IMG/VR virus record: IMGVR_UViG_3300035181_000829
Location: 26,232-90,231 of that record
Origin: a virus
Length of the DNA stretch: 64,000 bases
Strand: one strand, 5' to 3'
Shown: in pieces, positions 1,095 to 63,763 of the stretch
How the letters are laid out: every line of letters starts with the position of its first letter
Numbering within the stretch: the stretch's first letter is position 1
Translations under genes and position numbers: made by a program
Notes under the pieces: generated by a model
What the model was told of the DNA's origin: nothing
Seen by the model: only the letters and a program-made list of their open reading frames with translations
Databases searched by the model: none

Positions 1095-2898
1095 CGATGA
1101 CCTCCGAATCACTTGCAATCGATTGCAGCCGCTTTGCTTCAATCTGTTCAGCCATCTTTAGCATAGCGGCTTCGCTCAGTCTACGCAACATTTTCGTAAC
1201 CGGGGAAACACCATCTTCTTCCGAGCCGGGAGGCGTGACCTCTGTCTCTTGCGGCATCACATCGGTTAGTTGCTGCACAATATCGGTAAGGCCGGGGACT
1301 TGACCGCCCGCCATGATTGCCGTCATACTGCTTTGGAACGGCACGTCGCCCCATTCTTCCTCGATGGGCTGAATGTCCGCGTCAAGATAACGGTTGGCAA
1401 TCTTGATAGCGATGTTCGGGGTAATGGCCCCTTCCGCGCCAAGGGTGGCAACAAGGCGGGAGACTTCGGCAGGGTCCGACAGGCCGGGGCCTGCCGACCG
1501 CAAACGCCAGAAGCGGAAGTTGTGGCTTGCCAACACAAGCTGATCGAACATTTCATCCCATGCAATACGTTCGGGAATGAAAATCTGCTGGTCAGCGGTC
1601 AGCATTGATGCGAAGGCCGATGCGCGGTTATACTCGGATGCGCTGCCAATGTAGATCGGCGGAAGTCGGAAGGATGACCGGCCCTTGCGTTCTGCATCGC
1701 CGACATAGTTTTGAAACAGTCCCTCATGTTGGCGTTCAGACAGCATCGGCTTAATGTCAACCTTGGGGGCTGGCAGTGATCCATCGATTGCAGCGGCATC
1801 GGCACCCTCGGAAGTCGCTTCGAGCACCACGATCCTGTTCATGGAGGCTTGCCCGCGCACGCCAAGGATATATTGCTCAATCTTGTCGTAGCTTTCTTCG
1901 GTAAGCGCGCCCCCGGAGACGAGCACGGCCATTGCCGGGATTGCGTTGTCGCGGAAGAAGCCAAGGTTGACCATTTCTGCTTCCCGCGCACCGAGAAGGG
2001 CCGGGATTGCGCCCGCCCAGCGTGGAACGCCAACCGGAATGCCGGGAGAGTAGTGTCCATCGTAGAAAATGGACGTGGCTTCTTCCTCAATGGTCAGGTC
2101 TTCGTTGACTACTCCGCTGGTGGGATCAATGATGCGAGGGTCGCCAAATTCCTTGAACCATGTGCGCCGCCCGTATTCATCGATCTGTATGAAGCGACGG
2201 AAACGCCGGGTGAACGTCACCTTTTGACGAAGCACCGGGTCGAACATGGTTACCTCGGTCGCTTCGCGGTCCTTCATGGTCATCCGCATCGTGATCATGG
2301 GAACGTGCTCGAAGCTGACTACACGGCCAGCCGCATCCTCGATTACTTCAAAGCAACGTGCGCCGAGCACTTCCTTGTCGATGCGGCTTTCCTCACGGTG
2401 TTTTCGCAGGGTGCGGCCATCTGTCGTGATGGTTCCGAGTAGCCGCATGATGCGCTGGCGTTCGTTCTGTGCCGCGCGGCCCATCTCTTGTCCATCCGGC
2501 CCGCAGTATTCGAGACGCAGGCCGTAGCTCTCGATGTTGGTCACATAGGAATCGACACATTGGCGCAGAATGGTCGAAGCGTTGTAAATCTTGATCAGGT
2601 CACGGTAAGGGAACAGTGGAACAACGATCCGCATGGCATTGGACCGGAACACGTCGATACCTAGCGAGTTGCCGTCAACGTTGTCGTAACCGAGAAGGTT
2701 GAAGTCATCATGGAAAAGGCCGTAGATGCCTTTCTTCATGTTTTCCATGCTGGTGAGGCCGGAAAGGGCGGAAGTATAGCCCACCTCGGACTGGCCGGGG
2801 ATTCCGCCTTCAACAATCCCCGTGCCGCTTTTCTTGCTGTTTGCCGCCGCTTTGGTAGTGGAAGGCGTATTGATTTTGCGGACAAGCCTGCGCGCCAT
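1087..2898 (-). CDS. Portal protein
   Basis: About 600 aa with GVPRW...NLGFFRDNAIPAMAVLVSGG, FRLPPIYIG and YNRASA motifs typical of PBSX-like portals. AAGGAG RBS before ATG 2898. Lies between terminase and protease. Confidence 0.88.
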   Translation of the reverse strand: MARRLVRKINTPSTTKAAANSKKSGTGIVEGGIPGQSEVGYTSALSGLTSMENMKKGIYGLFHDDFNLLGYDNVDGNSLGIDVFRSNAMRIVVPLFPYRDLIKIYNASTILRQCVDSYVTNIESYGLRLEYCGPDGQEMGRAAQNERQRIMRLLGTITTDGRTLRKHREESRIDKEVLGARCFEVIEDAAGRVVSFEHVPMITMRMTMKDREATEVTMFDPVLRQKVTFTRRFRRFIQIDEYGRRTWFKEFGDPRIIDPTSGVVNEDLTIEEEATSIFYDGHYSPGIPVGVPRWAGAIPALLGAREAEMVNLGFFRDNAIPAMAVLVSGGALTEESYDKIEQYILGVRGQASMNRIVVLEATSEGADAAAIDGSLPAPKVDIKPMLSERQHEGLFQNYVGDAERKGRSSFRLPPIYIGSASEYNRASAFASMLTADQQIFIPERIAWDEMFDQLVLASHNFRFWRLRSAGPGLSDPAEVSRLVATLGAEGAITPNIAIKIANRYLDADIQPIEEEWGDVPFQSSMTAIMAGGQVPGLTDIVQQLTDVMPQETEVTPPGSEEDGVSPVTKMLRRLSEAAMLKMAEQIEAKRLQSIASDSEVIDG

Positions 2899-2927
2899 AT
2901 CTGCTAACTCCTTTTGGATTAGCAGCA

Positions 2928-2972
2928 ACTATACTCCACAACTTTTTTTGGCACAAGCTACAATCGATTGCA
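2928..2972 (-). promoter_or_regulatory. Sigma70-like promoter for portal, with palindrome just upstream of the -35
   Basis: TTGTGC(2956-2951)-N17-TATAGT(2933-2928); TACAATCGATTGCA at 2959-2972. Confidence 0.55.
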
Positions 2973-2974
2973 GG

Positions 2975-3463
2975 CTATTTCTTGAGGATGAACCTGCGTT
3001 TCTTCTTGATAACTAGCTTCTTTGGGGCGGGTGGTGGTGGTGGTATACGCAGTATGTATGGCTTGTTCACGTGTTCCTTGAGGAACGGCTTAATACCCCA
3101 CAGGAACGGCTGCGAGTATTGTAGGCCCGCGTTCATAATCTTTTCTTCGGTAGTCTGTGCGAAGATATGGCTCTGCAACTGTTCGTAGGTCGGACGCGAA
3201 ATTAACATCTGACCGTCATAGGTCTTGGCTAGTAGCGTGTTGAAGAAGTAGAAGAATACCTTCTCTTGAATCGTCATCGTTTTGATCCAACGCGGCTCGT
3301 GCATCTTATAGGCAAGTTGCATGAGGTTTGCAGGAGAGGCGTCGAAGCCAGCGTAACGCACCATACCCCCGATCAGACTATGCTGTAGCAGCATTGTCCA
3401 ATGCTGGCCGAACATTTTGTTAAGCCGCTCACTGTCGTTTAGGCGTCTTACAATTGCCATCAT
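2975..3463 (-). CDS. Hypothetical protein with Pro-rich linker and basic tail
   Basis: ORF with AAGGA RBS; ends PPPPPAPKKLVIKKKRRFILKK. Confidence 0.7.
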   Translation of the reverse strand: MMAIVRRLNDSERLNKMFGQHWTMLLQHSLIGGMVRYAGFDASPANLMQLAYKMHEPRWIKTMTIQEKVFFYFFNTLLAKTYDGQMLISRPTYEQLQSHIFAQTTEEKIMNAGLQYSQPFLWGIKPFLKEHVNKPYILRIPPPPPAPKKLVIKKKRRFILKK

Positions 3464-4830: not shown

Positions 4831-5293
4831 AGTCCTCTCCGACAACGAGTTTAAGCATGGACGTGATGTTGGGGCGCTCTGTAACGTGGTGCCCCGTGCC
4901 TGCCGCGAGGTCAATCGCGGTTACGGTATACCAGTGGCAAAACTCTGGATCGAGTTTCTTGAAGTTGTCCCGAAGAAACTTGGCTAGGCCATCGAAAGCG
5001 CCGTCCGACATGATGACGTAAGCCGGGTATTTCTCGTAGAGGATCGAGGCTAAAACATAGAGTTCTGTGGCCTGCTTGAAGCATCCGTCCATGAACTCCC
5101 ACGAATGCTTGGACTCTGCTTTCGCTACAATCGATTGCAAGCGCGCGAGCATGTTCGCATGAAACAGATCGAAGTATTCCTCGGCGTTTTCTTGCGAACC
5201 TTTTCCGGCTTCAAGAATCTTCCCCATACGAACGATAGGATCGACCGGCTTCGGTCGCTTCTTAACGACGATAATTCTACGTTTGATTGGCAA
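4724..5293 (-). CDS. Hypothetical protein with weak resemblance to a DNA-ligase N-terminal helical element
   Basis: YVLASILYE...IMSDGAFDGL recalls the Y-x(5)-I/MSDxxF/YD element; TTG start. Confidence 0.6.
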   Translation of the reverse strand: MPIKRRIIVVKKRPKPVDPIVRMGKILEAGKGSQENAEEYFDLFHANMLARLQSIVAKAESKHSWEFMDGCFKQATELYVLASILYEKYPAYVIMSDGAFDGLAKFLRDNFKKLDPEFCHWYTVTAIDLAAGTGHHVTERPNITSMLKLVVGEDYGQHTPKVSRKLIRRKRPSAKTAGRRMRIVRSPRG

Positions 5294-5353: not shown

Positions 5354-7450
5354 TTAAGCGCGTCTTACTGGCAGTCGTGAGACAGATTTACGTTCAGATA
5401 CGCTACGACGACCCCGGCGACGTATTAGGTAGTCCAAGTCATCGGCAGTTAGATTTTCTAGTTTCACATTGCCAATACTAGTTCTGTTACCGTGTAGCAT
5501 AAGCCCACGATCACCCTTGTATTTCGGTTGAGTGGTCCACGTAGCGCGGCGCGTAAGCAGGTAAGAGGCTACGCCACACACGGCATCGGCAATATCCTTC
5601 GAGCCGCGCGGCTTGTGGTCGATCTTTTCCTTTGATCCGTTCCGAACATACTCAAGTTCGGTCAGTTCCTTAATCAAGTGCTGGTTCCGCAGAAGCATAA
5701 CTCGTTCTTCATACAGTGCATCGCGAAACGTCTTGTAAGGTTGCGTCGTCCTGTCAAGGGACAGATATTCCGTAGCAAAACCTTTAGCGGCGAGTGTCTG
5801 CCGGAAATCTACCGACTGAAAGCCATCTGTCGTTACCACCTTGATTGGCAGTTGGTGTTCATCCCGCAGCCGATAAATGATTTCACGTATTTTGCTAAAC
5901 TCGATTTCACCGTCACGCGGCGGCAGCACACGGAGAATCAAGTCGTAGCCAATGACAGGCAAAACTTCTACCGTGCTTATGCCGCTGTCGGGATGCTTAC
6001 GCTCAATAGTCCTCATACCTGCAATGTGGCCGATAGCTATGCCCGCGCTGTCTCTGGTAACGGCAAGGTCAACGTGGCATACACGCATCGTCTTAATGTC
6101 ACGACGCACCCTGCTATCATCGATTGTAGGAATCGATATTTCAAGGTCGATATACTCATTGTCAATGACAGACTGATAGCCATACTGGTCTGCCAACGTC
6201 ATACACGAGAATAGGCTTTCACGGTTTTGGATGAACGGGTGAGTAGCTAGGGTAGTGATGCCCGCGAAGTCTCGAACGCAACCATCAATGTCCTTCTCAA
6301 ATTCGCTGCGGAAATCTTCTGGCACCGAAATAACCGTGCTGCTTTCCAACATGGACGCAGGGATGACTTCATTGTCATGCAGTATGCGCGACCGCATCCG
6401 TTCATCGCCGACTAACACTCGGAACGATTTGTCCATATACTTGTCCCGCCCCTTCGAATCCCAGAGGGATCGAGAGAACACGTAAATCTCTGGATCGTCG
6501 CCACCATACATGGCAGCTTCCTTAGCCTTTTCTTCTGTGAAGTCGTCGGGGTAGCGGGACGATGACACAAGGAACAGTGTGCCGGGCAACTTACCTTTGT
6601 GCATGAAGCGTGAGCGGCGGCGTTTCGACAATGTGAGGTATAGTGCCTTGGCTTGGTCATACTCGCCCTTTTCATCCGCGCTGCTGTTCTTAGACTTAAT
6701 CACTTTCTGCATGAAGTTTACTTCGTCAAGCAGGCCACCGATCACGTTCATGGAGATAGCGCCAGTATCCGCCGATGATACGGGCATGATGGTGATATTG
6801 TGCTCATGGAACAGCATCTTTGATGTGATGCGGTGATCATAAGGGAAAATCTCGCGAAAGAACGGGCTTGAGTTCAAGAACTTGCCAAATTCTTCGAACA
6901 CCGCATTCTTTGCAGTAGAAAGACGCACAGACTGAATGGTGAACACGATGGAGGAATGCTGTTGAATGCCGAAGGTCTGTTGCGGATTCCGCATACATGA
7001 CAGCTTGTAAATCTGTCGAGCCATGCCAAGGTTAGCGATGGTAGTCTTACCGCCGCCGATGGCACCTTTCAGGATGGCTTCGACATATTTCTCTGTATCG
7101 ATTTCACGCAAGGCTTCAATTACGCCGGGATAGATTTCGCGCTCATCAAGACCAAAGTAGGTGTCACCGAAAAGGAACTCGTCAAGCGGAACGACACCGC
7201 GACGATAACGGGTAAGCTCCAATATATGCTCAAGGTCGCCGTCCTTGGCGACCTCGGTGAGTGCGAATTGGAATTGATCCCGTAGTAGTTTATCGGGTAG
7301 CGAATTTACCTCGCTTGCAATCGCTTGTAGCGTATCCCGAAGCGCAATTTCCCGCGTAAGGTCTTCGTCGGGTATGGAAGCCGCCCGAATAAGCTTAGGC
7401 TTTTTTCGGACGATAATTTTGCGCGATGGCTTGACAAGTTTGCTAACCAC
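5354..7450 (-). CDS. terL: Terminase large subunit
   Basis: Walker A GAIGGGKTT, Walker B LLDEVN, coupling motif SSS, RNase H-like nuclease HVDLAVTRDSAG...TDGFQS...KIDH..GSKDIADA. Confidence 0.92.
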   Translation of the reverse strand: MVSKLVKPSRKIIVRKKPKLIRAASIPDEDLTREIALRDTLQAIASEVNSLPDKLLRDQFQFALTEVAKDGDLEHILELTRYRRGVVPLDEFLFGDTYFGLDEREIYPGVIEALREIDTEKYVEAILKGAIGGGKTTIANLGMARQIYKLSCMRNPQQTFGIQQHSSIVFTIQSVRLSTAKNAVFEEFGKFLNSSPFFREIFPYDHRITSKMLFHEHNITIMPVSSADTGAISMNVIGGLLDEVNFMQKVIKSKNSSADEKGEYDQAKALYLTLSKRRRSRFMHKGKLPGTLFLVSSSRYPDDFTEEKAKEAAMYGGDDPEIYVFSRSLWDSKGRDKYMDKSFRVLVGDERMRSRILHDNEVIPASMLESSTVISVPEDFRSEFEKDIDGCVRDFAGITTLATHPFIQNRESLFSCMTLADQYGYQSVIDNEYIDLEISIPTIDDSRVRRDIKTMRVCHVDLAVTRDSAGIAIGHIAGMRTIERKHPDSGISTVEVLPVIGYDLILRVLPPRDGEIEFSKIREIIYRLRDEHQLPIKVVTTDGFQSVDFRQTLAAKGFATEYLSLDRTTQPYKTFRDALYEERVMLLRNQHLIKELTELEYVRNGSKEKIDHKPRGSKDIADAVCGVASYLLTRRATWTTQPKYKGDRGLMLHGNRTSIGNVKLENLTADDLDYLIRRRGRRSVSERKSVSRLPVRRA

Positions 7451-8077: not shown

Positions 8078-8944
8078 TTACTTCGTCTTGCTACGGCTTA
8101 CCGTGCGTTTCTTCGCGGTGACGGTAGGGGCGGCGGGTTTCTTCGCATTTGCCGACGCTACAATCGATTGCAAGTCGGCGGCGGCGACCATCGCTTCCAT
8201 GATCTTGGTGTATGGAACGTCTGCCGCGTCCGCCATCTTGATCACTTCTTTCAGCTTCACATTGGTCGCTTCATCAATCTGGAAATAGTGGTGCTCTTTA
8301 CCGCCGAACGAGAACACCATGTATCCACGGTCGAGCTGACTTCCGCTTTCCTTGAAGATGCGGTTCAGCACAGATGACAGGTCGTCAACCGACTTGATCG
8401 TTTCCTTCGCCTCGTCCAACTTCTTGCGCTGCGCGGGCGTCATGTTGGCCTTTGCCGATTCGATCAAAACCTCGAAACGTTTGGAGTCATGGAAGCCCAT
8501 CTCGCGCTGCACCGTCTTGGGGTCACTGCCTTTTACAAGCTGACTATACAGCTTGACCAGTTTTGCCTTGTCGGTCACGTCGCCGCGAAGAACGTTCCGC
8601 TTGGTCAACGCGAGCTTCTTTTCACGGTCGGTCCAGTTCTTTAGGATAACCGGAACCTCGTGGTATCCGAGAACCTTCGCCGCTTTCAAGCGGTGGTGCC
8701 CGGAACCGATTTCATACCAGCCTTTCTTGCCGGGGGCTTCGCGAGCGAGGATCGGTTCATCGAACCCTTGCTCGCGGATTTCTTCCACAAGCGCGTCAAA
8801 CACTGTTTCCGACATGACGTTGGGGTTGTCCTCGTCGGGGATCAACCTATCAACCGAAATGTAGACAATATTCGGCTTCGTTTTGTCATCTGTTGCCTCC
8901 TGCACGGGGGCGGGCGTAATGGCAGCGCGCTTACGGATGGGCAT
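8078..8944 (-). CDS. ParB/Srx N-terminal domain protein
   Basis: NPNVMS...LVEEIREQGFDEPIL...EIGSGHHRLKAAKVLG..EVPV is the ParB-N GxxR box. Confidence 0.88.
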   Translation of the reverse strand: MPIRKRAAITPAPVQEATDDKTKPNIVYISVDRLIPDEDNPNVMSETVFDALVEEIREQGFDEPILAREAPGKKGWYEIGSGHHRLKAAKVLGYHEVPVILKNWTDREKKLALTKRNVLRGDVTDKAKLVKLYSQLVKGSDPKTVQREMGFHDSKRFEVLIESAKANMTPAQRKKLDEAKETIKSVDDLSSVLNRIFKESGSQLDRGYMVFSFGGKEHHYFQIDEATNVKLKEVIKMADAADVPYTKIMEAMVAAADLQSIVASANAKKPAAPTVTAKKRTVSRSKTK

Positions 8945-11309: not shown

Positions 11310-11834
11310 TTACTTATCTATGGTAGTATAATCTCCTTCGATAATCAAGCTGCTGTCGTGTTGCAAATCAATCTTCCGAACTTCGGTCACTTTTACCCTT
11401 TGTTTATAAGCACTTCGGGGTGTAGATGGTGGAGCTACAACACTAATTTTCTTGGAACTGATGATGGTGGCCTTGCCTGTTTGCCTCTGTGGATCGGCAA
11501 GCTCGGCGACCGCCCCAAGAACACCATTAGCATCCCGCGTGAGCGATACCGTTACCGAAACCCGTAATGGACGCTCATCTGCTTTATCAGCCTGTGACCT
11601 ATCCGTAACTATAAGCGTCCGCACGTTGATGCCGCTGGATGAAAGTTTCTTTTCGCCGATAGGTTCGTAAAGATAACCTTCGTCTATCAATTCCTTGATG
11701 CGAGCCGTGCAGCTCGACATGGTAAGTCCGGTGCCTTTGGCTACTTCCTTGCGAGTGCATCCGGGGTTCATATCGACGTAGTTGTAAACGTCAAAGCGAA
11801 CACCTTGTAATACCGAGTTTCTGCCGCCGTTCAT
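11310..11834 (-). CDS. Winged-helix DNA-binding protein
   Basis: NPGCTRKEVAKGTGLTMSSCTARIKELIDEGYL. Confidence 0.75.
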   Translation of the reverse strand: MNGGRNSVLQGVRFDVYNYVDMNPGCTRKEVAKGTGLTMSSCTARIKELIDEGYLYEPIGEKKLSSSGINVRTLIVTDRSQADKADERPLRVSVTVSLTRDANGVLGAVAELADPQRQTGKATIISSKKISVVAPPSTPRSAYKQRVKVTEVRKIDLQHDSSLIIEGDYTTIDK

Positions 11835-13921: not shown

Positions 13922-14140
13922 TTAAACTTGTTTGTCCATCCACCATTTGGCGATGTCTATTTCGATCATATCGCCGGGGGCGGCGGTTTCGATTACTTCC
14001 AAGCTTTCTCCGCTCATGTTGGATTTGGGTATCCAGAGGCCAGACCGGACACCGTAGTCTGGGTGCGTGAAGGAACAACAGAACGCCAAGTCACGCTCGT
14101 CCTCTGCACGCACCAACATCGTAATAAAGCGGTCGATCAT
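13922..14140 (-). CDS. Hypothetical protein
   Basis: Small ORF coupled to HU (WIPKS...I.KW pattern). Confidence 0.6.
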   Translation of the reverse strand: MIDRFITMLVRAEDERDLAFCCSFTHPDYGVRSGLWIPKSNMSGESLEVIETAAPGDMIEIDIAKWWMDKQV

Positions 14141-14415
14141 TACAACACCATTTCCTTGAGGACTTTGGCCGGGGTGAACTTGATTTTCTTCTTGGCAGGA
14201 ATGTCGATGGGTTCCCCGGTCATCGGGTTGCGGCCCTTGCGCGCCGCGCTTTCCTTGGCAGAGAACTTGCCGAAGCCCGTTATAAGCACGGAATCATCGT
14301 TTGCCATGATGGTGCTGATGTTAGCAAATGCTGCATCGATGATTTCCCGCACATCGGCGCGGCGGATGCCGGTCTTCGCCGCAACGATAACGATGAGGTC
14401 ATTCATGGTAGCCAT
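14140..14415 (-). CDS. hup: HU/IHF-family DNA-binding protein
   Basis: ITGFGKF...ARKGRNPMTGEPIDIPAKKKIKFTPAKVLK signature; GAGGA RBS before ATG 14415. Confidence 0.95.
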   Translation of the reverse strand: MATMNDLIVIVAAKTGIRRADVREIIDAAFANISTIMANDDSVLITGFGKFSAKESAARKGRNPMTGEPIDIPAKKKIKFTPAKVLKEMVL

Positions 14416-20476: not shown

Positions 20477-20558
20477 GGTCTTTGTTCCGTTTGTTATGGG
20501 CATAGGTGCCCGCAGAAACGTTACCGCGAGCACTTCTTTGTTGCAATGGATTGTAGCA
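20477..20558 (-). promoter_or_regulatory. Repeated promoter/leader cassette, copy 2
   Basis: TACAATCCATTGCAA-N17-TAACGT, then GGGCA-CCTA-TGCCC hairpin and AACGGAACAAA. Confidence 0.8.
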
Positions 20559-47419: not shown

Positions 47420-48523
47420 TTATAGCGTCCTTGCCCATTTTGGCTTGGTTGCTATCCGATCACCATTGGAATTAAAGGGGGCACGACCGTTAAACAACCA
47501 TGCGTTATTGATCATCCGGTGTAGAACTTCGGAAGGCAGGCTTCCGGGGTCTGAGCCGTCGAAGCTTCTCTCGTATGGCACAATCCATACGGATAATTCG
47601 TTATATAGCTGGAATGCCCATGCTCTTGATGTGTTTAGTGAACCATCCTTGTCCGGTATTCCGAACGCAGCTTGCCATCCCGCCACATCATTGTCGAACA
47701 GCAGGTATACAGGTTCACCGGAGTCAATGAGTATGCGTATTTTTTCCGGCGTGCTAGCAGTGCCTAAGACAGCATGTGTGCCAAGATAATTGTTATGGAC
47801 AAGATTTGCGTAGTCGAACAATCCCTCAACAATGATCTTGCGTTGCTCTTTGTGTCTATTGCGCAGATGCAGGAACAGTTCGAGTTTATTGAGGCCAAAG
47901 TAATCCCTGACCTTTGGGTTCGCTTTGCTATAGGTGGACTCTGGCAGGATAGACCGGCCCGTGAAGCCACGGAAGCGTTGTCGATAATCGTAGACCGGAA
48001 AGAGCACTCGTTGCTGTATCGGGTCGAACCGTAGCTGCATCCGCATTACGTCAAGAAAAGTGACGTTGCGTTGCGATAGGTAGGGCAATCCGAGGGCTTG
48101 CGGGAATAGGTTTAGGGCCGTTTCCGGCAGAACGGTTTCGCCCGCCGTTGCCGCGTTGTAATCGATTGTAGCGACGGCTTCCCAATCGGGCAGAGGCTTG
48201 GAAGCGATGCCGTCCATTTCCGCCGCTTCCGCCCACGAACGAAGCTTGGAGTAATCTTTCTTACGGTAGCCCCCCAAACGTGTCGGCAAGCTGGCGAGTC
48301 GGCCAGTCATGTTGCAAGAGAAACACTTGTAAGCGGATGGTGCATCATCATGTAGCGATATGCCAAATGACGGGTGGCTATCATAGCCATCAGAATGTGT
48401 CCACTGCGCAAAGGGGCAGCGGATATTCATCCATCTCGTCCGCTGCTTATTCCCGGTGTATTCGACCTTGATAAGATCGATCCCTAGTTGACCTAGGACA
48501 TACCGGACGTTCGTTTCATCCAA
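47420..48523 (-). CDS. dnaG: DNA primase (CHC2 Zn finger plus TOPRIM)
   Basis: CPF...H...D.HPS...CFSC; IVEGLFD; LLFDNDVAG; TTG start with GAGG RBS. Confidence 0.88.
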   Translation of the reverse strand: MDETNVRYVLGQLGIDLIKVEYTGNKQRTRWMNIRCPFAQWTHSDGYDSHPSFGISLHDDAPSAYKCFSCNMTGRLASLPTRLGGYRKKDYSKLRSWAEAAEMDGIASKPLPDWEAVATIDYNAATAGETVLPETALNLFPQALGLPYLSQRNVTFLDVMRMQLRFDPIQQRVLFPVYDYRQRFRGFTGRSILPESTYSKANPKVRDYFGLNKLELFLHLRNRHKEQRKIIVEGLFDYANLVHNNYLGTHAVLGTASTPEKIRILIDSGEPVYLLFDNDVAGWQAAFGIPDKDGSLNTSRAWAFQLYNELSVWIVPYERSFDGSDPGSLPSEVLHRMINNAWLFNGRAPFNSNGDRIATKPKWARTL

Positions 48524-49549: not shown

Positions 49550-52500
49550 TTGGTTGGGTTCCCCGTGATATGGTGATTTTACGCCGTGGTGACTGCATTG
49601 TGAAGGGTTTACCGTCTGACAATGCAGCATCCGCTTCGATAGTGGCTATCTGTTTGGTCAGTTTCGCTATGTCCTTTTCGCTAGTAGCTTTCGACAGGGC
49701 ACCATTGGTATCCCGCCATACATGTTCGAGCATGTCCCGGTATGACTTATTCCGGTTGTTCGCTCCTTCGAACCATTCACTGTCAAGTTCATAGGTAGAT
49801 GCAAGGTCACGCCCAACCTCGGCATCCGCGATGATCGGGATGGAAGGATTCCAGCTAAACCATTTTTCTAGCGGGTTGTTCTCCATGAATTGCTTTACGA
49901 GGGCGCAGCCGTGGGCAACATGTTCTTCCCGCACTAGACAAACGATAGCGTCGTGGATGAACCCGCACGGCTTCAACCAGTCAATCCCTTTTGAAAGGAT
50001 ATAGGGTATAAGCCGTCCTAGAGTCATAAGCCCAAGATCGCTTGCAATCGATTGCACGGGGCTGTTGATTGCCTGCCGCATTGCCTGCTTAGCGATTGCT
50101 TCATCCCGCGAAAAGACGTTCGGCAGGTGGCGGATGCGGCCATCGTAAGTTCGAACAAAGCCGGTTTGTGCAACATACTCTTGGACTGTATTATGCCATG
50201 TCAAAAGGCGCGGGTATGTCTTGAAGAACATAGTCCTGATGTTCTCCGCTTCCTCGTCGGTGAAGTCGATCCCGTAGTCGGTCTTGGCGTAGGCACGGAA
50301 CTTTTTCCACCACATACCATACAGGAATCCGAAGTTCACCGCTTTGGCTTGGAAGCGTTTCAGCGATTGTAATTCTTTATCAAGCTTCAGAAACTGGTCG
50401 AGCGTAAGCCCCATAGTTCCTGCTGCTGTCATCCTGTGAATATCGCCACCATCGCGATACACTTGCAGCATGTTTTCGTCGCCGCTCATCATAGCCGCGA
50501 TGCGAAGCTCTGCTTGAGACAAGTCTAGCGAGATGAACACCCATCCTTTAGGTGCACGAAAGATGCGGCGATACTTCTTAGCCATATCGCCGCGCTTTGG
50601 AAAGTTCTGTCCATTCGGATCGGCAGAATTGTGATTAAACACACCACATGCCAAGTAGCTATGGTCGTCGGCTACTTCGAGGTCAAACACAGGATAGCTT
50701 CCGCAATGGTGAACTTGCGTAATAGTCACTTCATTGTGGTTAAGGCAAGGTTGTCCAGTTGATTGTTCTCTGTATTCTCGTTTATGTGATGAACTTCCAG
50801 CCAATCGGGTAGTTGCAGGGGGTGCAGGTTCAGGGCTTCCGCAATTACTACCCGGTGAACAAAGTATCGCTTTTTGTCTACTACCGTTGTTAAGTATCCA
50901 TGACCATCCTTTTGAAACTTCCCCGGTAGATGGTTGCCCGGTTTCATTCCGAGCATGGGATTTCTGCCGCCCATTTTCGACGCAGAGTATTTCGTGTAAA
51001 GCCTTAACACTCTCTTGCGGAAGTTCTTGTCGGCCAAGTGCCGCTTGGATACAGATATTGCGAAGTGAAGTCCAACCTTTAGGTGTATAGAAACGGTGTT
51101 CTTCTGTGCATCGGATTTTCTCCCCCGCGCTTGTCGTAACGTCATACATAGCTTGAACGGGCTTCAAGTATTTACGCACAACAGGTTTACGGTTTCCTTT
51201 GTGGGTAGTGACCGTATCCCCAATCGCTATGTCGGCTATCCGAACAAGGCCGCGTTGCGTAGGTATGAGAGTATCTGCGTGGACACAGGCTGAGCGACCT
51301 GTAACGGTCGCCGCAAGCTTGTAGGTTGGTCTGATCAATCCGTCGAAGATATACTTGTGAAACCCCTTGGCATAGGTATTCAGCATCTTATCGTTCTTGA
51401 TGTATGTCGTAAGCCGCGCAAGCACAGGATGGTCCGCGACATAGTAAGGAAGCGCCTGCTTTGACGACACCGAAGGCAAGCCGGTCTTGGTAAATGCAAC
51501 AGGTTTAAGTTTCAATCCATCGGGGTGATGGTATAGCCAATCTGCAAGCAAGTCGCGTCTCGTTACTTTAACACCGACGCCGCTATTCCGCCACTTATCA
51601 CGAATGGATTTGGGTATCTGGTTTATGAGGTATCCGCGCTCTTTCTTTTGTATGAGGCGAAGATCGGTTTCGAACTCATTGAGCCGGTTTTCATCGACCG
51701 GGAAGCCGTTACGTTCTACATGGCAGAATGCGCGGCTGGCGGGCATGGACACGTAATCGTAGGTTGCCCGCAGTCGAACGTCCTCGTCAAGTTGTGCGAG
51801 TAGGCGACCTAGCAGGTGCAGCGCCGCGTCCGTATCTCCTGAACCATAGACGAGCATTTTCTCCGGGCTAAGTAAGTCCATGCGGGTCTTACCGTGGTGT
51901 TCCGGGTCGTTATTCAGTGTATCATTGTAGCCCGCCATCTCAGGCACATGCTGTCGAACAAGGTCATCGATATTGATACGCCGCTGGTTTTCATCGAGAA
52001 GGTGCGCGATAAGCATCGTATCGTGCGCGTAGTTCTGCACATCGATGCCCATTTGATAGTGAAGCATCTGAATGTCGAACTTGAGATTTTGCCCGATCTT
52101 TTCAATGCGCGGGTCTTCGAGAATTGTTTTAAGATCAGCGAAAAGCTTTTTCCTATTGATGGTATCCCAAGGGATGAAATTATGGTGCCGATATTTACCA
52201 TAATCATAATTGATCGGGATGATGATAGACTTCCCCGTTTCCCATGACATTTGTATAGTGAGAACAGTTGTCTTCTTAGCGAACGGAACTAGTCCAACGG
52301 TTTCAACGTCGAGCGATATGAGCTTTGGTCTATTTTTCAAAACATCGGTAAGGTCGTAGCACCACTTGTAGTCGCGCTTATAATCGATTGCAGCGGACTC
52401 AATGTCGAAATCAGCTTCGAAGATACGCGAGGCCGTGCGAAGATCAGCGTTGAATGTTCCCTCGGTTTCTGGCTGGCGCTGGGCGTAGAACGTTGACAGC

Positions 52501-56734: not shown

Positions 56735-56799
56735 GTATTGCTCCCGACAAGCATTGCAATCGATTGTAACACGGGGGAGAGACCAACGGAGCTAACGCA

Positions 56800-57686: not shown

Positions 57687-57720
57687 ATTGTAATCGATTG
57701 CAGTGGCGGGCGTCAAGTCA

Positions 57721-59086: not shown

Positions 59087-61627
59087 TTATCCTTTCGGTG
59101 TGGGTTTGCGGACAACGCGGGCACGACCACGAATACCACGGCTACCAACAGTCAATGGTCGCATGTGGTGCTCACCAGTATTGACGGCACTTGCCGCGCG
59201 GGCATTGACTTCCGCCCATTCGCGCATTGCATCAAATTCTGCCGCCCGTGTCTTGTGCATGGGCCGCAATGTTGACCATGCCTCCCGCAGATCGTTCAAG
59301 TCAACCGCTGTATCGCCTCTGCCTAGGCACATCACAAGGGCTTCCTCGCACAAGCTTTCGATTTCGGCCCCGACCAAGTTCTCGGAAATGCTTACAATCG
59401 ATTCGAGGTCATCTTCGCTGATTTCCTGCCCGCGCTTGGCAAGGTGGATTTCGAAGATTGTCCGACGTTCCTGCGCGTTTGGCACGTTGACCGCCCAGAT
59501 TTCATCGACGCGGCCCTTGCGCAGAAGTTCTGGCGGCAGATTGTCGATACGGTTTGCCGTCATAATCAAGAAGACGGGGCGGTGCCGCTGGTTACGCTCC
59601 TGCATCCACGTAAGAAACGTGCCGAACACCCGTTGCGTCGTGCCGCCATCGTTCGCACCGCCCGCCATGCCAGAAAAGCCCTTGTCAATTTCGTCAAGCA
59701 TCAGAACGCACGGAGACATTGCATCGATCATTCCGAGCACGTTTCGCATCGCACTCTCGGATTGGCCGATGTATGCGCCGAAGACGCGGCCAACGTCGAA
59801 GCGGATGACCGGAAGATTCAAGATGGACCCTGCGGCTTTTGCAAGCATACTCTTGCCTGTATTATGCACGATCAGGCCGTTGTTGACGTGGAAGTTGGCA
59901 GCAGGCATTTCCATTTGCAAATCGTAGGTATCCTTGATCCCGACGACGCTTACCTTGCGTACCTTGGTTATCCTCGTATGTTCCACGTTGAGGTTTGCAA
60001 CCGAAATGTCGCGGTGTTGTGCCAAGTGATCGCTATTGGCAAGAACCTCAAGATTGGAGATTGCATCGTTCAACGCATCTCCGTCCAGATGGTGAACCTC
60101 ACGCGAGTCTGGCAGCACAATTCGGTGCGGATGGTCCGGTGTGCCACGAAGGGCGGCGACATACGCATCGTAGGATAACCCATTCATACGGGCCTCTATG
60201 ACAAGCCGTGCTTTGTGCTGGCGTTTGTAGTGGAAGATACGGTGCGAAGTTTCGATAACGTGGGGCCAACCACTATCGTAGTATTTCAGCCCCTCTACGA
60301 CGATACTCGGTCGATTGACCGACCGACCGCCCTGCGGCATGGGCTTCATGCTGCCGCGCATAACTAGCTTATCGCCCCGACGAACGTCCGCTACGCGCTT
60401 GAACGTGCCATCGATTGTAAGGACGCTATCCTCGGGTGTGATAACGACCTCATCGTCGTCTGTGGTGATACGGATGCAGGGTTTCTTTCCGCTGGCATAC
60501 GCTCCGATCACACGATTGTAGAACATGGTGCCAGTTTCGCTGTCCCACGATTGAACGTAGGTTGGCTTGGTCAAATCCCACGGTCTGCTTTTGGCAACAG
60601 GCAAACCATTGAATTTGGCAACAAAATCCTCGATAGGCATAGACCTCGAAGAATTGCGCTTGCCTCGTTTGTAGTGAATGATGGTTCCAGCGGCTTTGCA
60701 ACCCGGTGGGCCGACCACTAGCGCACCCTTGGACGGGGTGATACCAAGTTCCTTGGCACCTTCGCCGTAAGTTCCCGCACGCTGCACCATCCACTTTTTG
60801 AAAAGCTCCAAGCCGCCAACCTCCTCGATGGCAACAGGCGGCTGGAGTTCGAGCACGTTCGTCTTGCGCAGCAGTTGCGTCTTGTAGTCCCGCAACCATC
60901 GCAGCATTTCGGGTGCGCCGAAACCTGTCAGGTTACCGTGCTCGTTACCATAGTCGGTAACCGACAACGCGATAGCGGTTTCGAAGGCCGTGGCCGTCAT
61001 GCCGCGTCCGTTGGCGATGATCGCCGCCATTTGCTCGTCGGTGATGCTGGCAGAGATTTCCTTGTTTTCGAACGCCCGCGTAATGTCAGAGAGGCTTTCC
61101 CGCAGTTCATCGTCAGACGGATAGCCGAAGTCCACGATATGCAGTAGCGGGGCCACGGCGTCGGGAATGGTGGCGCTCTGCGGGATGATGATGAATACTC
61201 GCTGATTGACCGACAACGCACGCTGCACTTGCTTGCGTAGCAAGAATTGCGTGCGCATTTCGTCCAGCGTGAAGTAAAGATCGAGCATGACGAAGTAGCC
61301 TTCGGCCATATCCCGATTTTCGAAAAGGTTGGTGAAGGCTGACAGCACGTCCGCTGCACGTTTGTCATCGCTTTCCGGTTCAAGCGGATTGAAGACCGGC
61401 ATCTGTGAAAGGCCAACCTCAATACGCGGGAATTTCATCCATCCGCGTTCGACGGTGTGCATCCTGAACGGTTGCTCATTCGTGACGGACAACGCATAGA
61501 TTTCGTCAACGACGCGGAACACCTCTGTTTCATGGCACCGAACGGCGATCAGGCCGATTGAGGCATCTGTCGCGATAGTTAATTCGAGGGCAAGTGCCTC
61601 GGATGAAGTTTTGGTAGTCTTTGGCAT
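59087..61627 (-). CDS. Ycf46-like AAA+ ATPase, intein-containing
   Basis: VGGLE..K.W, GPPG/TGKS..AKA, FDVGRVF..YIGQSE..MR, PCVL.LDEIDKGF, FLTWMQE, TAN....LPPELLRKGR.DE. Confidence 0.9.
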   Translation of the reverse strand: MPKTTKTSSEALALELTIATDASIGLIAVRCHETEVFRVVDEIYALSVTNEQPFRMHTVERGWMKFPRIEVGLSQMPVFNPLEPESDDKRAADVLSAFTNLFENRDMAEGYFVMLDLYFTLDEMRTQFLLRKQVQRALSVNQRVFIIIPQSATIPDAVAPLLHIVDFGYPSDDELRESLSDITRAFENKEISASITDEQMAAIIANGRGMTATAFETAIALSVTDYGNEHGNLTGFGAPEMLRWLRDYKTQLLRKTNVLELQPPVAIEEVGGLELFKKWMVQRAGTYGEGAKELGITPSKGALVVGPPGCKAAGTIIHYKRGKRNSSRSMPIEDFVAKFNGLPVAKSRPWDLTKPTYVQSWDSETGTMFYNRVIGAYASGKKPCIRITTDDDEVVITPEDSVLTIDGTFKRVADVRRGDKLVMRGSMKPMPQGGRSVNRPSIVVEGLKYYDSGWPHVIETSHRIFHYKRQHKARLVIEARMNGLSYDAYVAALRGTPDHPHRIVLPDSREVHHLDGDALNDAISNLEVLANSDHLAQHRDISVANLNVEHTRITKVRKVSVVGIKDTYDLQMEMPAANFHVNNGLIVHNTGKSMLAKAAGSILNLPVIRFDVGRVFGAYIGQSESAMRNVLGMIDAMSPCVLMLDEIDKGFSGMAGGANDGGTTQRVFGTFLTWMQERNQRHRPVFLIMTANRIDNLPPELLRKGRVDEIWAVNVPNAQERRTIFEIHLAKRGQEISEDDLESIVSISENLVGAEIESLCEEALVMCLGRGDTAVDLNDLREAWSTLRPMHKTRAAEFDAMREWAEVNARAASAVNTGEHHMRPLTVGSRGIRGRARVVRKPTPKG
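59861..60700 (-). mobile_element. Intein (280 aa) with in-frame HNH endonuclease, inserted in Walker A
   Basis: GPPG|CKAAGT...EVHHLDGD.LND.ISNL.....DH...H...TYDLQM...NF..NGLIVHN|TGKS. Confidence 0.92.
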
Positions 61628-61650: not shown

Positions 61651-61687
61651 TGCAATCGATTGTAGCACGGATACCTGCGTAGTTGAA
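61651..61687 (-). promoter_or_regulatory. Promoter for the AAA operon, -10 supplied by the palindrome
   Basis: TTCAAC-N17-TACAAT with extended TG; ACGGAGC RBS. Confidence 0.55.
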
Positions 61688-61957: not shown

Positions 61958-62767
61958 TCAGCTAAGATTGCCTACAAGAGATGGAACAGTATTCGCCGAC
62001 GACACTGCAATGGTGACAGGCCCATTGTTGCCGAGCGATGATACCTGCGTTGCGAAGTGGAACAACGTCGCCGCATTGTTTTTCAACGCCGTCAATGCGT
62101 CGTTCACGCCCGTCAACACTAGCGTCGAGCCACCGACTGCGGGAGAGGCCGCAGTGTCCGCACTATCGTAGCTCGTCCAACCATTGCCAGCCACACGATC
62201 AAACAAGCCGCCGGTGCCATCGGGCAGCACAACAGCACCGATTGCAACACGAACAAAGTTCAGGGCTGAACATATCGCCGCCTGCGTATTCTTCGCGTTC
62301 ACGATCTGTATATAGCCCGATTGTGCATCGACAGTGCCGGTTGCCGCGCCTGTCAACGTTGACGTAATCAAATCAAGATTACCATCAGGTCCGGTTGCTC
62401 CGGTCAAATCCCGAACAATGCCGTAGGCTCCTTTGCTGATGAAACCTATGAACATGTTGATGATCCCTATGGATTCTTGGTTCGCATCACGAATCGCAGC
62501 GATGGCCGCGTCGAACTCCGTCTTCGGTGCAAACAGCGTCATACCATCGACAACCGATCTGGCGGGGATATTGACGGGCAGAAGCTCGGTTCCGACAACA
62601 CCAGTCGAGTTGTCAGCATAAACCGCGCCGCCAAAGTTTATGCCGATTCTTGTGCGGGCGGCTTCTTGGGCCAGCGCCGCGATGGCGAGTTGCAGTGATA
62701 GGGCATCACTGTGCAACGTAGAAATTGAGATTTCTTGGACATTCTGGATTTTAACTGCACGGGCCAT
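61958..62767 (-). CDS. Probable virion structural protein, paralog 1
   Basis: Ala/Thr/Gly-rich; colinear with 62843..63664. Confidence 0.65.
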   Translation of the reverse strand: MARAVKIQNVQEISISTLHSDALSLQLAIAALAQEAARTRIGINFGGAVYADNSTGVVGTELLPVNIPARSVVDGMTLFAPKTEFDAAIAAIRDANQESIGIINMFIGFISKGAYGIVRDLTGATGPDGNLDLITSTLTGAATGTVDAQSGYIQIVNAKNTQAAICSALNFVRVAIGAVVLPDGTGGLFDRVAGNGWTSYDSADTAASPAVGGSTLVLTGVNDALTALKNNAATLFHFATQVSSLGNNGPVTIAVSSANTVPSLVGNLS

Positions 62768-62842
62768 TGCTCTACCTAGGTTAAGAAAAAAGCCCCACCA
62801 AGTGAGCAGGGCCAGTTGTTTCCAACAGGGAGGTGGAAAGGG

Positions 62843-63664
62843 TTAGCCCGTGATACCGTTCGCGAACTGCGGAACCAGCCGACGAGCGGCCACGGCAACG
62901 ACGATGGGGCCTGCCGCCGTGATGGCGATGGCATCGTTCAGGTATTTTGCCAGCGTGGCAATGTTGTTCTTGATCACGCCCAGCAAGGTATTCACGTCCG
63001 TCAATGCCAGCACGTTTTCGTGCGCCGCGCCAACACCCGTTCCGGTCGTCGCCGAATCGTAGGTCGCCCAATGGGCATTGGTAACATCGAACACACCCCC
63101 CGAGTTGTCGGGAAGGGTCGCCATACCGAGCGACACGCGGACGAAGTTCACCGCCGCCGTCAGCGAAGCTTCGGTGTTGCGCAATGCAACGATTTGCGCG
63201 ATGGCATCGGCAGCGGGCACAGCCGCCGTGGCGGAGCCGGTCAGGGCCGAGGAAATCGCGCCGATGGTGCCGTCTGCTGCGGTGGCCCCGGTCAGGGCGC
63301 GGACGGTCGTATACAGCGAGCCTGCGATGTATCCGATAAGGACGTTGGTGCGGGCCACAATCTCCTGATGCGCATCACGGATCGCGGCAATCGCCGTATC
63401 GAACCCAGCCTTGGGTGTGTAAAGCGTCGTGCCGTCCGCAACAACCGGCGTCGGGGTCACCAACGCGGCCACTGTCGATCCGGGGGTGCCGCCCGTCGAG
63501 TTGGTCAGCGCGGCAAGGGCCGCAGCCGTCACGGCGGCTTTCACGTTGGCGCGGGTTTGCGATTGCGCGAGTGCGGCCAGTGCCCGGTCGATGAAAATCG
63601 GGTCATGGTAAGACTGCGAAAGCGGAACTTCGAGGACATTCGGGATTTGATCATAGCGCGACAT
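62843..63664 (-). CDS. Probable virion structural protein, paralog 2
   Basis: Ala/Thr-rich, strong codon bias, AAGGAG RBS, own promoter. Confidence 0.7.
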   Translation of the reverse strand: MSRYDQIPNVLEVPLSQSYHDPIFIDRALAALAQSQTRANVKAAVTAAALAALTNSTGGTPGSTVAALVTPTPVVADGTTLYTPKAGFDTAIAAIRDAHQEIVARTNVLIGYIAGSLYTTVRALTGATAADGTIGAISSALTGSATAAVPAADAIAQIVALRNTEASLTAAVNFVRVSLGMATLPDNSGGVFDVTNAHWATYDSATTGTGVGAAHENVLALTDVNTLLGVIKNNIATLAKYLNDAIAITAAGPIVVAVAARRLVPQFANGITG

Positions 63665-63734
63665 GCGGATTCTCCTTTTGCAGTCGTTACATTCGGGCCT
63701 CTAGGGCGCATCCCCGTTGGCCGACAGTGATTAC

Positions 63735-63763
63735 ATAGTATTGCAATCGATTGTAAGCGTCAA
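63735..63763 (-). promoter_or_regulatory. Promoter with the palindrome filling the -35/-10 spacer
   Basis: TTGACG(63763-58)-cttacaatcgattgcaa-TACTAT(63740-35). Confidence 0.75.

Follow-up and report, generated by a model that had tools for sequence, protein, structure and literature searches.

The stretch of viral DNA considered here (the window, 64 kb) corresponds to bases 26232-90231 of the IMG/VR virus record IMGVR_UViG_3300035181_000829, which is linear, 90,231 bp long and rated 96% complete. Genes were called with our own scorer of open reading frames (ORFs), which gave 120 genes covering 88% of the genome, all of them on the minus strand of the window, including those encoding a portal-like protein, the large terminase, a ParB-like protein, a RecA-like protein, an SF2 helicase, a primase-like protein, a DNA polymerase and an AAA ATPase. 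Throughout this phage genome, genes included, a 14-bp palindrome, TRYAATCGATTRYA, recurs once per 1.6 to 2.4 kb. A first-pass annotation made from the letters of the window had described it as an evenly spaced array and proposed that a dimeric protein coats the genome at these sites.

Pattern search recovered exact matches to TRYAATCGATTRYA at all of the 29 coordinates given in that annotation, against a mean of 0.01 and a maximum of 1 in 100 dinucleotide-preserving shuffles of the window; the whole record contains 38, and a control pattern read backwards has 0 matches. The 16 variants listed together with the exact copies were likewise all found, 15 with one mismatch and that at 59393 with two. 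When up to two mismatches were allowed, the window showed 52 matches (2.25 +/- 1.36 in shuffles, maximum 7), seven of which add to the earlier list (6115, 17820, 17959, 21382, 21646, 36644, and 60406), while with at most one mismatch the window has 46 sites and the genome 57. The exact and one-mismatch copies of the window are collected in Table 1 together with the other features discussed below.

Half of the exact copies (19/38) are located in called genes, where 1000 within-gene synonymous-codon shuffles produced a mean of 0.23 and a maximum of 3, so that codon bias, the explanation against which the first-pass annotation had advised a shuffled null, does not account for them; the remaining 19 fall in the 12% of the genome that the gene calls leave uncovered. 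In the window, 14 of the 29 copies are in called genes (two in frame 0, seven in frame 1 and five in frame 2) and a fifteenth, at 44723, lies in an ORF missed by the gene caller, which bears out the estimate that about half of the copies are genic and that all three frames are used. Because the gene set comes from our own scorer, the label "between called genes" overstates the true intergenic DNA, as the copy at 44723 illustrates. The peptides read from the copies in the genes named earlier, xQSI(A/V), YNRLQ and xID(Y/C), were confirmed. In the called proteome 21 peptide positions are able to encode the motif synonymously and 19 of these carry it, evidencing that the peptides exist due to the DNA motif and not the reverse. 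The motif is real, selected and written into coding sequence, and a 14-bp palindrome conserved so strictly is most simply explained by a dimeric reader of double-stranded DNA.

Table 1. Copies of the palindrome and other features of the window (positions are those of the window; copies are placed relative to the called genes).
Feature	Position	Strand	Context
exact copy	1114..1127		portal-like gene 1087-2898(-), codon 591/603; copy at same place in RcDurkin portal gene
exact copy	2959..2972		60 nt upstream of 1087-2898(-) start
exact copy	3835..3848		gene 3463-3885(-), codon 13/140
exact copy	5126..5139		between called genes
exact copy	8159..8172		ParB-like gene, codon 258/288
exact copy	13094..13107		gene 12781-13161(-), codon 19/126
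exact copy	14851..14864		gene 14806-15048(-), codon 62/80
exact copy	24228..24241		within long early non-coding region
exact copy	26128..26141		70 nt upstream of 25587-26057(-) start
exact copy	29914..29927		29 nt upstream of 29552-29884(-) start
exact copy	32573..32586		56 nt upstream of 32172-32516(-) start
exact copy	34304..34317		25 nt upstream of 33925-34278(-) start
exact copy	35237..35250		54 nt upstream of 34709-35182(-) start
exact copy	35980..35993		20 nt upstream of 35513-35959(-) start
exact copy	37321..37334		gene 37256-38554(-), codon 407/432
exact copy	37909..37922		gene 37256-38554(-), codon 211/432
exact copy	39223..39236		49 nt upstream of 38613-39173(-) start
exact copy	42314..42327		RecA-like gene 42268-43467(-), codon 381/399
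exact copy	44723..44736		inside uncalled helix-turn-helix-like ORF 44300-44904(-)
exact copy	46180..46193		SF2 helicase gene 44902-46503(-), codon 104/533
exact copy	48157..48170		primase-like gene 47420-48523(-), codon 118/367
exact copy	50043..50056		DNA polymerase gene 49464-52943(-), codon 963/1159; RcDurkin copy at same codons
exact copy	52379..52392		DNA polymerase gene 49464-52943(-), codon 184/1159
exact copy	55100..55113		gene 54924-56204(-), codon 364/426
exact copy	56755..56768		20 nt upstream of 56375-56734(-) start
exact copy	57689..57702		47 nt upstream of 57078-57641(-) start
exact copy	58620..58633		gene 58425-59081(-), codon 150/218
exact copy	61651..61664		23 nt upstream of AAA ATPase gene 59087-61627(-) start
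exact copy	63742..63755		77 nt upstream of 62843-63664(-) start
one-mismatch copy	6115..6128		terminase gene 5354-7450(-)
one-mismatch copy	7316..7329		terminase gene 5354-7450(-), codon 41; aligned RcDurkin place is an exact copy
one-mismatch copy	10322..10335		gene 9297-10859(-)
one-mismatch copy	12010..12023		gene 11831-12658(-)
one-mismatch copy	16931..16944		5' end of gene 16595-16963(-)
one-mismatch copy	18852..18865		centre CC on coding strand; early region, 85 nt upstream of a start
one-mismatch copy	20542..20555		centre CC; early cassette, 65 nt upstream of a start
one-mismatch copy	20951..20964		centre CC; early cassette, 65 nt upstream of a start
one-mismatch copy	22388..22401		early cassette, 64 nt upstream of a start
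one-mismatch copy	22523..22536		early region
one-mismatch copy	23331..23344		72 nt upstream of 22764-23258(-) start
one-mismatch copy	23601..23614		29 nt upstream of 23362-23571(-) start
one-mismatch copy	28456..28469		gene 28372-28752(-)
one-mismatch copy	31612..31625		43 nt upstream of 31191-31568(-) start
one-mismatch copy	40494..40507		centre CC; 90 nt upstream of 39243-40403(-) start
one-mismatch copy	56067..56080		gene 54924-56204(-)
one-mismatch copy	60406..60419		AAA ATPase gene 59087-61627(-)
candidate reader 1	39243..40403	-	386-aa protein; disordered basic start, SH3/KOW-like barrel (about 50-125), helical domain (about 165-287)
candidate reader 2	8078..8944	-	288-aa ParB/Noc/KorB-like protein, two genes upstream of large terminase
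lesser candidate	44300..44904	-	helix-turn-helix-like ORF (assigned by eye) between helicase and RecA genes; carries a copy
lesser candidate	11310..11834	-	winged-helix (HTH_24/MarR_2) protein
HU-family DNA-binding protein	14140..14415	-	Pfam Bac_DNA_binding 9.6e-28
three tandem sigma-70-like early promoters	23758..23963	-	(T/C)TGATA-N16/17-TACAAT then CGATAGG

Spacing and turnover of the copies across the phage family

The coefficient of variation (CV) of the gaps between copies lies below that of random placement in ten out of ten family genomes or loci (null CV 0.85-1.13; P from 0.005 to <0.0001). It is 0.66 in the present genome, 0.72 in Rhodobacter phage RcDurkin, 0.55 in Pseudomonas phage SM1, 0.48 in Stenotrophomonas phage DLP_5, 0.59 in Rhizobium phage RHph_I4, 0.40 in Vibrio phage PG28, and 0.48, 0.23, 0.21, and 0.40 in the loci L157, L159, L155, and L165, respectively; for the present genome, RcDurkin, SM1, and DLP_5 the null preserved the numbers of genic and intergenic copies. 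The even spacing proposed for the window stands when the one-mismatch copies are included (46 sites), with a CV of 0.44, an evenness reached by none of 20,000 random placements. Among these sites the largest gap is 2721 bp, very near the 2.7 kb first estimated, against a null mean of 5989 (0/20,000). Counted in the same way, the largest gap is 4112 bp in the whole genome (P = 0.0006) and 3735 bp in RcDurkin (P < 0.0002), where about 7300-8000 is expected, and several gaps cluster just below this ceiling (3453, 3486, and 3502 in the present genome; 3414, 3427, 3475, and 3735 in RcDurkin).

The positions of the copies turn over. The present genome and RcDurkin share 65 reciprocal-best orthologues with a mean protein identity of 46%, and of the 13 genic copies that could be aligned to RcDurkin orthologues two are conserved (VQSIA in the polymerase and the C-terminus of the portal protein); at the other 11 places RcDurkin shows 7-12 mismatches of 14 and the residues differ. 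In the opposite direction, 11 RcDurkin copies aligned to the present genome comprise two conserved, one with 2 mismatches, one with 5 and seven with 8-11. The expectation that orthologous genes keep the site via synonymous choices was therefore mostly not borne out. Long genes, such as those for the tape measure, the 1373-aa tail protein and the polymerase, have private internal copies in each phage, some of them near one another but in a different frame. Because the genic copies are mostly not conserved between orthologues, it is their number and spacing, and not their position, that are selected; density and the lack of long gaps are what is kept.

At the DNA level, the match to a cultured phage is confined to the terminase gene (RcDurkin, 72.7%). 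The same pattern occurs 40 times in RcDurkin, the 10-bp core of the motif 38 times in RcTiptonus, and five large IMG/VR records have 12-25 copies each, all of them, among the matches listed, being the fully symmetric TGCAATCGATTGCA. More distant relatives, with portal proteins 26-35% identical, contain 0 copies of the core and have instead sister palindromes of 14 bp in the same frame, mostly TGCA-N6-TGCA with a lineage-specific inner part. These are TGCAAC-N-GTTGCA in RHph_I4 (53 copies), TGCAAYWWRTTGCA in Rhizobium phage RHph_TM16 (17 copies) with the same type in Rhizobium phage RHph_Y1_11 (15 copies), TGCAARCGYTTGCA in SM1 (30 copies), the TGCAATCAATTGCA type in DLP_5 (31 copies), TGCAATYRATTGCA in Rhodobacter phage RcZahn (9 copies) and the TGCARTTAAYTGCA type in PG28 (33 copies). 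Control patterns read backwards gave 0-1 matches in the relatives. For RHph_I4, 45.3 of 108.4 kb were analysed as sequence and the remainder via pattern and protein searches. The centres of the 30 SM1 copies are ACGC or GCGT in 21 cases, GCGC in 7 and ACGT in 0, and two SM1 genes start with ATGCAAACGCTTGCA, inside a palindrome copy.

Among 39 IMG/VR loci around homologues of the ParB-like protein, 23 have a clear palindrome, one a weak one and 15 none. The CAATCGATTG type is present in 13 of the 23, and the remaining 10 have TGCAAACGTTTGCA, TGCAGCCGTCTGCA, TGCAGGNNCCTGCA, TGCAGGWWCCTGCA, TGATAACGTTATCA or ATAAC-N2/3-GTTAT. A Streptomyces phage with a distantly similar portal protein showed no palindrome array by pattern search, and a scan of bacteria (one genome per species) returned at least 120 stretches, among the matches listed mostly single hits in scattered taxa, in line with chance. 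The R. capsulatus strain on which RcZahn was isolated is also that of the RcF phages, and yet the central bases of the motif differ between them; the reader is therefore more likely a phage product than a host one. That selection acts on the array itself is indicated by the even spacing, the residue changes in conserved proteins, the near-saturated use of encodable positions and the persistence of the array across the family.

Promoter-like copies, neighbouring genes and candidate readers

Part of the copies occupy promoter-like positions, as the first-pass annotation had allowed. In the present genome 16/38 have a start codon no more than 60 nt downstream, compared to 9% of random places, and the share is 27-42% against 8-10% in five out of five genomes. 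The left half of the motif reads TACAAT or TATAAT on the coding strand, with A at -11 and T at -7, in 23/38 copies (15/38 do not), and at the mirror position this reading is found on the opposite strand in 7/38. When the present genome and RcDurkin were pooled, position 2 was A (TA.AAT) on the coding strand in 37 cases and on the other in 11 (P = 0.0002), and these A-type copies were enriched within 60 nt of a start codon (Fisher test, pooled P = 0.02; present genome 0.043; RcDurkin alone 0.31). Many gene-proximal copies come directly after a terminator-like hairpin, 5-25 nt before the ribosome-binding site and 12-29 nt before the start codon, and a similar arrangement follows the DLP_5 capsid gene. 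In the 16-18 bp upstream spacing range, the best -35 hexamer score was 2.68 against a background of 2.41, and a 5/6 match was found in 1/38 copies compared to 1.7% of random places.

A 0.9-kb A+T-rich non-coding region at 23750-24400(-), probably the early control region, contains the three tandem promoter repeats listed in Table 1 plus TAGACA-18-TATAAT. The early promoters have TACAATCGAT as -10 and TTGATA or CTGATA as -35, the left half of the palindrome being the -10. In cassettes of the early region, the one-mismatch form with CC at its centre precedes the starts by 64-90 nt; those at 20470-20560, 20880-20970, and 22320-22540(-) consist of the variant palindrome, a hairpin of about 40 nt, AACGGAGCAAA and the start codon. 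A near-consensus promoter (TTGACG-17-TATAAT with an upstream TG) opposed to all genes lies at 19260-19288(+). Elsewhere, the copy at 35980 is located in the loop of a 10-bp G+C-rich inverted repeat (35960-36010), resulting in a much longer palindrome.

Pfam profiles were scanned with 50 of about 92 called window proteins. The DNA-binding candidates in this set are the ParB_N protein 8078-8944, the winged-helix protein 11310-11834 and the HU homolog 14140-14415; no LacI-family protein, sigma factor, RNA polymerase or methyltransferase and no ParA or KorA-type clamp-lock partner was seen among them. The genes common to the present genome, RcDurkin, SM1, and DLP_5 are a replication/recombination set, the AAA ATPase, packaging and head genes, the ParB-like protein and 39243-40403, and the last two remain the best of the binders that the first-pass annotation had put forward.

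The protein encoded at 39243-40403 was modelled with AlphaFold2 (AF2) at a predicted local distance difference test (pLDDT) of 82. Among 48,161 chains, the best match of its helical domain is the parS-bound ParB DNA-binding domain 6s6h_B (Z 7.0, root-mean-square deviation, rmsd, 3.2, 98 residues aligned), and the match to Spo0J 1vz0_A has Z 6.1. It has no Pfam or PDB sequence match, even by profile, and no Foldseek match at E 0.001; leads to DUF3102 and "ParB HTH" in a structure atlas (score 0.78) were below the bar of the tool and were set aside. Its profile matches proteins of RcDurkin, SM1, DLP_5, and PG28, protein search adds TM16, RcZahn and Vibrio phage VHB1, and no match was found in bases 1-50 kb of the Arthrobacter phage Kitkat, which are motif-less, or 20-70 kb of the mycobacteriophage Corndog, which have a different 17-bp repeat. 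In SM1 the homologue directly precedes a gene with ParB_N only.

For the protein encoded at 8078-8944 the Pfam ParB_N match has an E value of 3.5e-10 and the model a pLDDT of 84. Its N-terminal domain matches ParB, Noc, and KorB with Z 14-16 and rmsd 1.4-1.7 over 92-97 residues, and the alignments to KorB 8qa9_B, ParB 6t1f_B and Noc 7nfu_B run to model residue 166. The place two genes upstream of the large terminase is kept by the ParB-like genes of RcDurkin, DLP_5, RcZahn, and PG28. Full-length homologues are present in RcF phages, DLP_5/DLP_3, TM16, Y1_11, RcZahn and four Vibrio phages; none was found in VHB1. A homodimer prediction reached a score of 0.28 against a mark of 0.42, and nothing was drawn from it. 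At the RHph_I4 locus L137 (record 86800-90600) three separate ParB_N ORFs lie within 3.8 kb.

Other proteins of the window qualify less well as readers. The ORF 44300-44904, without a Pfam match at E 0.01, is syntenic with RcDurkin gp76 (annotated as helix-turn-helix) and DLP05_060 (annotated as regulator). The winged-helix protein 11310-11834 was discarded, its homologue being found only in RcDurkin among the genomes tested and thus confined to the RcF group, as was the HU protein, which has no BLAST match in SM1 or DLP_5 and is not a family core gene. The proteins 18245-18766, 22764-23258, and 38613-39173, the rest of the phage candidates suggested earlier, gave no Pfam or PHROG match.

Some neighbouring genes show features of their own. 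The AAA ATPase 59087-61627(-) is an 846-aa protein with an intein and an HNH endonuclease (Pfam Intein_splicing at 373-589, HNH_3 at 505-534). According to our own gene calls, the DNA polymerase 49464-52943(-) has 1159 aa vs 943 aa in RcDurkin and the terminase 5354-7450(-) 698 aa vs 1046 aa; the two phages probably differ here by insertions, for instance of inteins. The adjacent genes 28372-28752(-) and 28766-29218(-) encode uncharacterised DUF6915 (6.6e-47) and DUF6878 (1.9e-20) proteins, and a SLOG-family (YAcAr) protein is encoded at 10866-11282(-), between the winged-helix gene and that for a 520-aa protein; in RcDurkin the counterparts carry the annotations DprA-like and glycosyltransferase.

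A probable docking lattice, its alternatives and related systems

Based on the available evidence, the copies probably represent a lattice of docking sites in double-stranded DNA that would be read by a dimeric, sequence-specific protein encoded by the phage. Selection would keep copy number and spacing and not exact places, new copies being written into coding sequence where a gap would otherwise open, such that no gap exceeds about 4.1 kb when one-mismatch copies are counted. The proteins 39243-40403 and 8078-8944, alone or together, are the candidate readers, and a ParB-type identity of the predicted reader is conceivable, at a little under even chances. By analogy with KorB of plasmid RK2, the protein may be loaded at every copy and from there slide or spread along the adjoining 1-2 kb, so that the whole chromosome would be within reach, with global transcription control, marking of the phage's own DNA, or both, as the consequence; such sliding or spreading is more doubtful than the lattice and the ParB-type identity. 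The sequences show the array, its selection, evenness and turnover and its variants by lineage; binding by a protein, the identity of the reader and any spreading are what we infer, and the composite of docking lattice, phage-encoded dimeric reader, probably ParB-type, and KorB-like action is about evenly balanced between right and wrong. In the present phage and the RcF phages there is a second layer, in which the gene-proximal copies tend to read TACAAT and the left half-site may double as -10.

A more far-reaching version, which seems unlikely, takes the lattice as a self-label of the whole chromosome, in which a ParB-type protein that lacks a partner or is split loads at private palindromes within sliding range and covers the phage DNA. 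This cover would separate own DNA from that of the host or of rival phages for silencing, nuclease protection or choice of the packaging substrate; the ParB_N gene has its place among the terminase genes. Private motifs would diversify between lineages like incompatibility or immunity groups, which would explain the different centres in two phages of one Rhodobacter strain.

Several observations weigh against the docking lattice or the proposed readers. The part of the even-spacing claim that concerns the exact copies of the window alone did not hold, as these (n = 29) are not significantly even (CV 0.75 vs 0.95 +/- 0.16, P = 0.084), and the largest gaps between exact copies match chance in the whole genome (P = 0.32) and in RcDurkin (P = 0.29). 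No motif was found within about 10 kb on each side in the 15 palindrome-free loci with ParB-like homologues. Spacers of 1, 2, and 3 bp occur in 7, 45, and 1 of the 53 RHph_I4 copies, and of 2 or 3 bp in the loci L152-L154, a variability unusual for a rigid dimer on duplex DNA. Regarding 39243-40403, the Z values of the modelled fold (7.0 and, for Spo0J, 6.1) are in the middling zone, common for helical domains, no homologue was found in RHph_I4, which has the most copies of any, and VHB1 encodes a homologue yet has 7 copies only (PG28: 33). As for 8078-8944, its GHHRLKA aligns with GERRWRA of Noc and departs from the CTP-binding motif GERRxRA, although it may bind nucleotides in another way, RHph_I4 and SM1 possess its N-terminal domain only, and Kitkat encodes a full-length homologue 37% identical to it, whereas 50,000 of its 58,560 bases showed no dispersed palindrome and the family frame gave 0 matches across the complete record; the last 8.5 kb, the site of the ParB homologue, were covered by the frame pattern only. 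Neither candidate tracks the motif perfectly, and all associations between reader and motif are confounded by shared ancestry.

The motif could alternatively be primarily a compact promoter without -35, providing starts for the host RNA polymerase, perhaps with a phage factor, every few kb in a genome with all genes on one strand, its evenness then reflecting distributed starts. The strand bias of A at position 2, the enrichment of A-type copies near starts, the start-proximal share in all five genomes, the copies placed between terminator-like hairpins and ribosome-binding sites and the three early promoters with their -35 elements speak for this view. It is opposed by the background-level -35 score, by the half-sites of the relatives (TGCAAT, TGCAAG, TGCAGG, and TGCAAC) without A at -11, by the overlap of two SM1 copies with a start codon, by the genic location of 22/31 DLP_5 copies and by the mid-gene copies in the tape measure, polymerase and tail genes, which cannot serve those genes. 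In addition, the A-type association in RcDurkin alone does not reach significance and a promoter does not need a perfect palindrome, making a primary promoter role a minority option. Given the missing -35, the half-sites of the relatives, the SM1 overlaps and the genic DLP_5 copies, promoter use is read as a secondary layer of the RcF-like lineage and not as the family-wide function. Promoters of a T7-like phage RNA polymerase, suggested by the strict conservation, the lineage specificity and the position of copies in front of genes, were dismissed: the 50 proteins scanned include no RNA polymerase or sigma factor, and outside the tail genes the family has no unexplained protein >about 700 aa, although a polymerase that is small or hard to recognise may exist. 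Sigma-54 was rejected as well: TTGCA resembles its -12 element, but the spacing from GC to GC falls short by one base, a GG is missing, and the AAA ATPase belongs to the PF00004 type. A resemblance to the RuvC cleavage preference and to the IHF consensus fits some lineages only.

A small hairpin in single-stranded nucleic acid as the functional form, either an RNA processing or stability signal or a replication DNA hairpin marking lagging-strand primer starts, is improbable. A stem of 5 bp with a loop of 3-5 nt is one reading of the family frame and would accommodate the variable spacers of RHph_I4 and L152-L154, the copies are on average 1.6-3.3 kb apart, comparable to the length of bacterial Okazaki fragments, and non-palindromic centres show some strand bias (TCAA 18 vs TTGA 8 in DLP_5; CCGT 9 vs ACGG 2 in L157). 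On the other side, no RNA structure is predicted for TACAATCGATTGCA, the form most often seen on the coding strand (minimum free energy, MFE, 0.0 kcal/mol), 26-nt windows at the 38 copies fold at -3.7 in sense and -4.4 in antisense vs -3.4 +/- 2.5 at random, the stem sequence is fixed within a genome without covariation, and the frequent A at position 2 produces an A-C mismatch in the sense RNA. It is very improbable that the copies are sites for a host protein, such as a LacI-type regulator, or targets of methylation or restriction. The core AANCGNTT is shaped like LacI-family operators, the lead of the first-pass annotation, the centre contains ATCGAT, and methyltransferases are annotated beside ParB_N genes in several relatives; the LacI lead does not extend to DLP_5, RcZahn, RHph_I4, and PG28, whose motifs have no CG centre, and a host LacI regulator is an unlikely binder since phages of one host differ in their centres. 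Phages of different hosts, moreover, share the outer bases, the bacterial hits listed are mostly single and taxonomically scattered, the 50 window proteins scanned include neither a methyltransferase nor a LacI-family member, and restriction targets are usually avoided and not enriched. Just as little weight is given to the idea that the repeats are microhomologies for recombination or copies of a short element that spreads itself and has no role in the phage, as suggested by identical short repeats at many gene boundaries and by the repeated promoter-hairpin cassettes of the early region, and countered by the even spacing, the residue cost in conserved proteins, the near-saturated encodable positions and the persistence with changed sequence.

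The docking lattice finds its closest parallel in KorB of plasmid RK2, reported as a CTPase of the ParB family that acts as a clamp: loaded at its 16-bp operator, it slides for up to 1.5 kb and silences promoters. The short palindromic operator is dispersed across a mobile genome, with copies near promoters as well as distant ones, as here (PMC11790492). The sliding distance is of the order of half the largest gaps of the phage. A further likeness is the match of the N-terminal domain of 8078-8944 to KorB, Noc, and ParB. As differences, there are about 40-57 phage sites per 90 kb vs the 12 OB operators on RK2, the copies in the phage show even spacing and occur within genes, its protein carries GHHR in place of GERR, and the element is a tailed phage. 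Because the canonical CTP motif is absent and binding is a prediction, the array is not filed as a member of the ParB/KorB family, although by analogy it most likely works like one. Regarding lifestyle, the RcF group is described as apparently virulent (PMC8601537) and DLP5 as a phagemid lysogen (PMC5834331).

In Cluster O mycobacteriophages, >30 copies of the 17-bp dyad repeat TGTTCGGNNNCCGAACA were described, spread throughout a siphophage genome, about a third of them in coding regions and most without a link to predicted promoters; the authors assign no function but expect a dimeric protein to bind, and the phages encode a ParB-like protein (Cresawn et al. 2015; PMC4351075). Ryadel is reported to have 31 copies of the 17-bp repeat (PMC6439249). 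The present array is similar in its 38 exact copies throughout the genome, 19 in called genes and with no -35, and Corndog gp96, an AAA ATPase, is 32% identical to the extein of 59087-61627. The two differ in sequence and length of the repeat (TGTTCGGNNNCCGAACA has 0 matches in the present genome), in the phylum of the host and in spacing, the 30 copies in 49.8 kb of Corndog examined not being even (CV 1.04, P = 0.75). Corndog gp90 has no significant BLAST match to the proteins of the present phage (best E 0.34, to another gene) and a weak match to the ParB-alignment profile, E 0.001.

Density and distribution of the sites are also reminiscent of the stoperators of Cluster A phages, described as dozens of identical short sites, mostly at gene boundaries and also in genes, with one phage reader protein (PMC4351075). 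Stoperators are asymmetric and oriented with transcription, whereas the motif found here is a palindrome with strand bias at position 2 only (37 vs 11), and Cluster A phages are temperate with an immunity repressor. Between related Cluster A phages, stoperator and reader co-diverge. Noc of Bacillus subtilis, a ParB-family protein with many dispersed 14-bp palindromic sites, spreads and ties DNA to the membrane for division control, and its structures 7nfu and 7ol9 are among the best fold matches of 8078-8944; Noc is a cellular protein, and its site sequence is absent from the present genome. By word search, "palindrom" is absent from the text of the RcF (PMC8601537) and DLP3 (PMC7326821) papers and "promoter" from that of PMC7326821, and a full-text literature search with the motif strings returned no phage description, the string matches being cloning primers.

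Dispersed dyad repeats of phages were described in 2015 at the latest, in a report that left their function unassigned (PMC4351075). The array analysed here is common to a wide family that includes culturable phages of Rhodobacter, Rhizobium, Pseudomonas, Stenotrophomonas, and Vibrio, which makes it accessible to experiment. Its sequence varies by lineage with the layout constant, and its even spacing is kept at a cost in protein sequence. RcDurkin growing on R. capsulatus offers the two candidate readers, and the RcF phages compared to RcZahn a natural swap of specificity. If the reader proved to be a ParB-type clamp, the long-range control by a sliding clamp exemplified by KorB would be extended from a plasmid with a dozen sites to phage chromosomes tiled with them, and a function would be provided for the very common phage genes annotated as "ParB-like nuclease domain".

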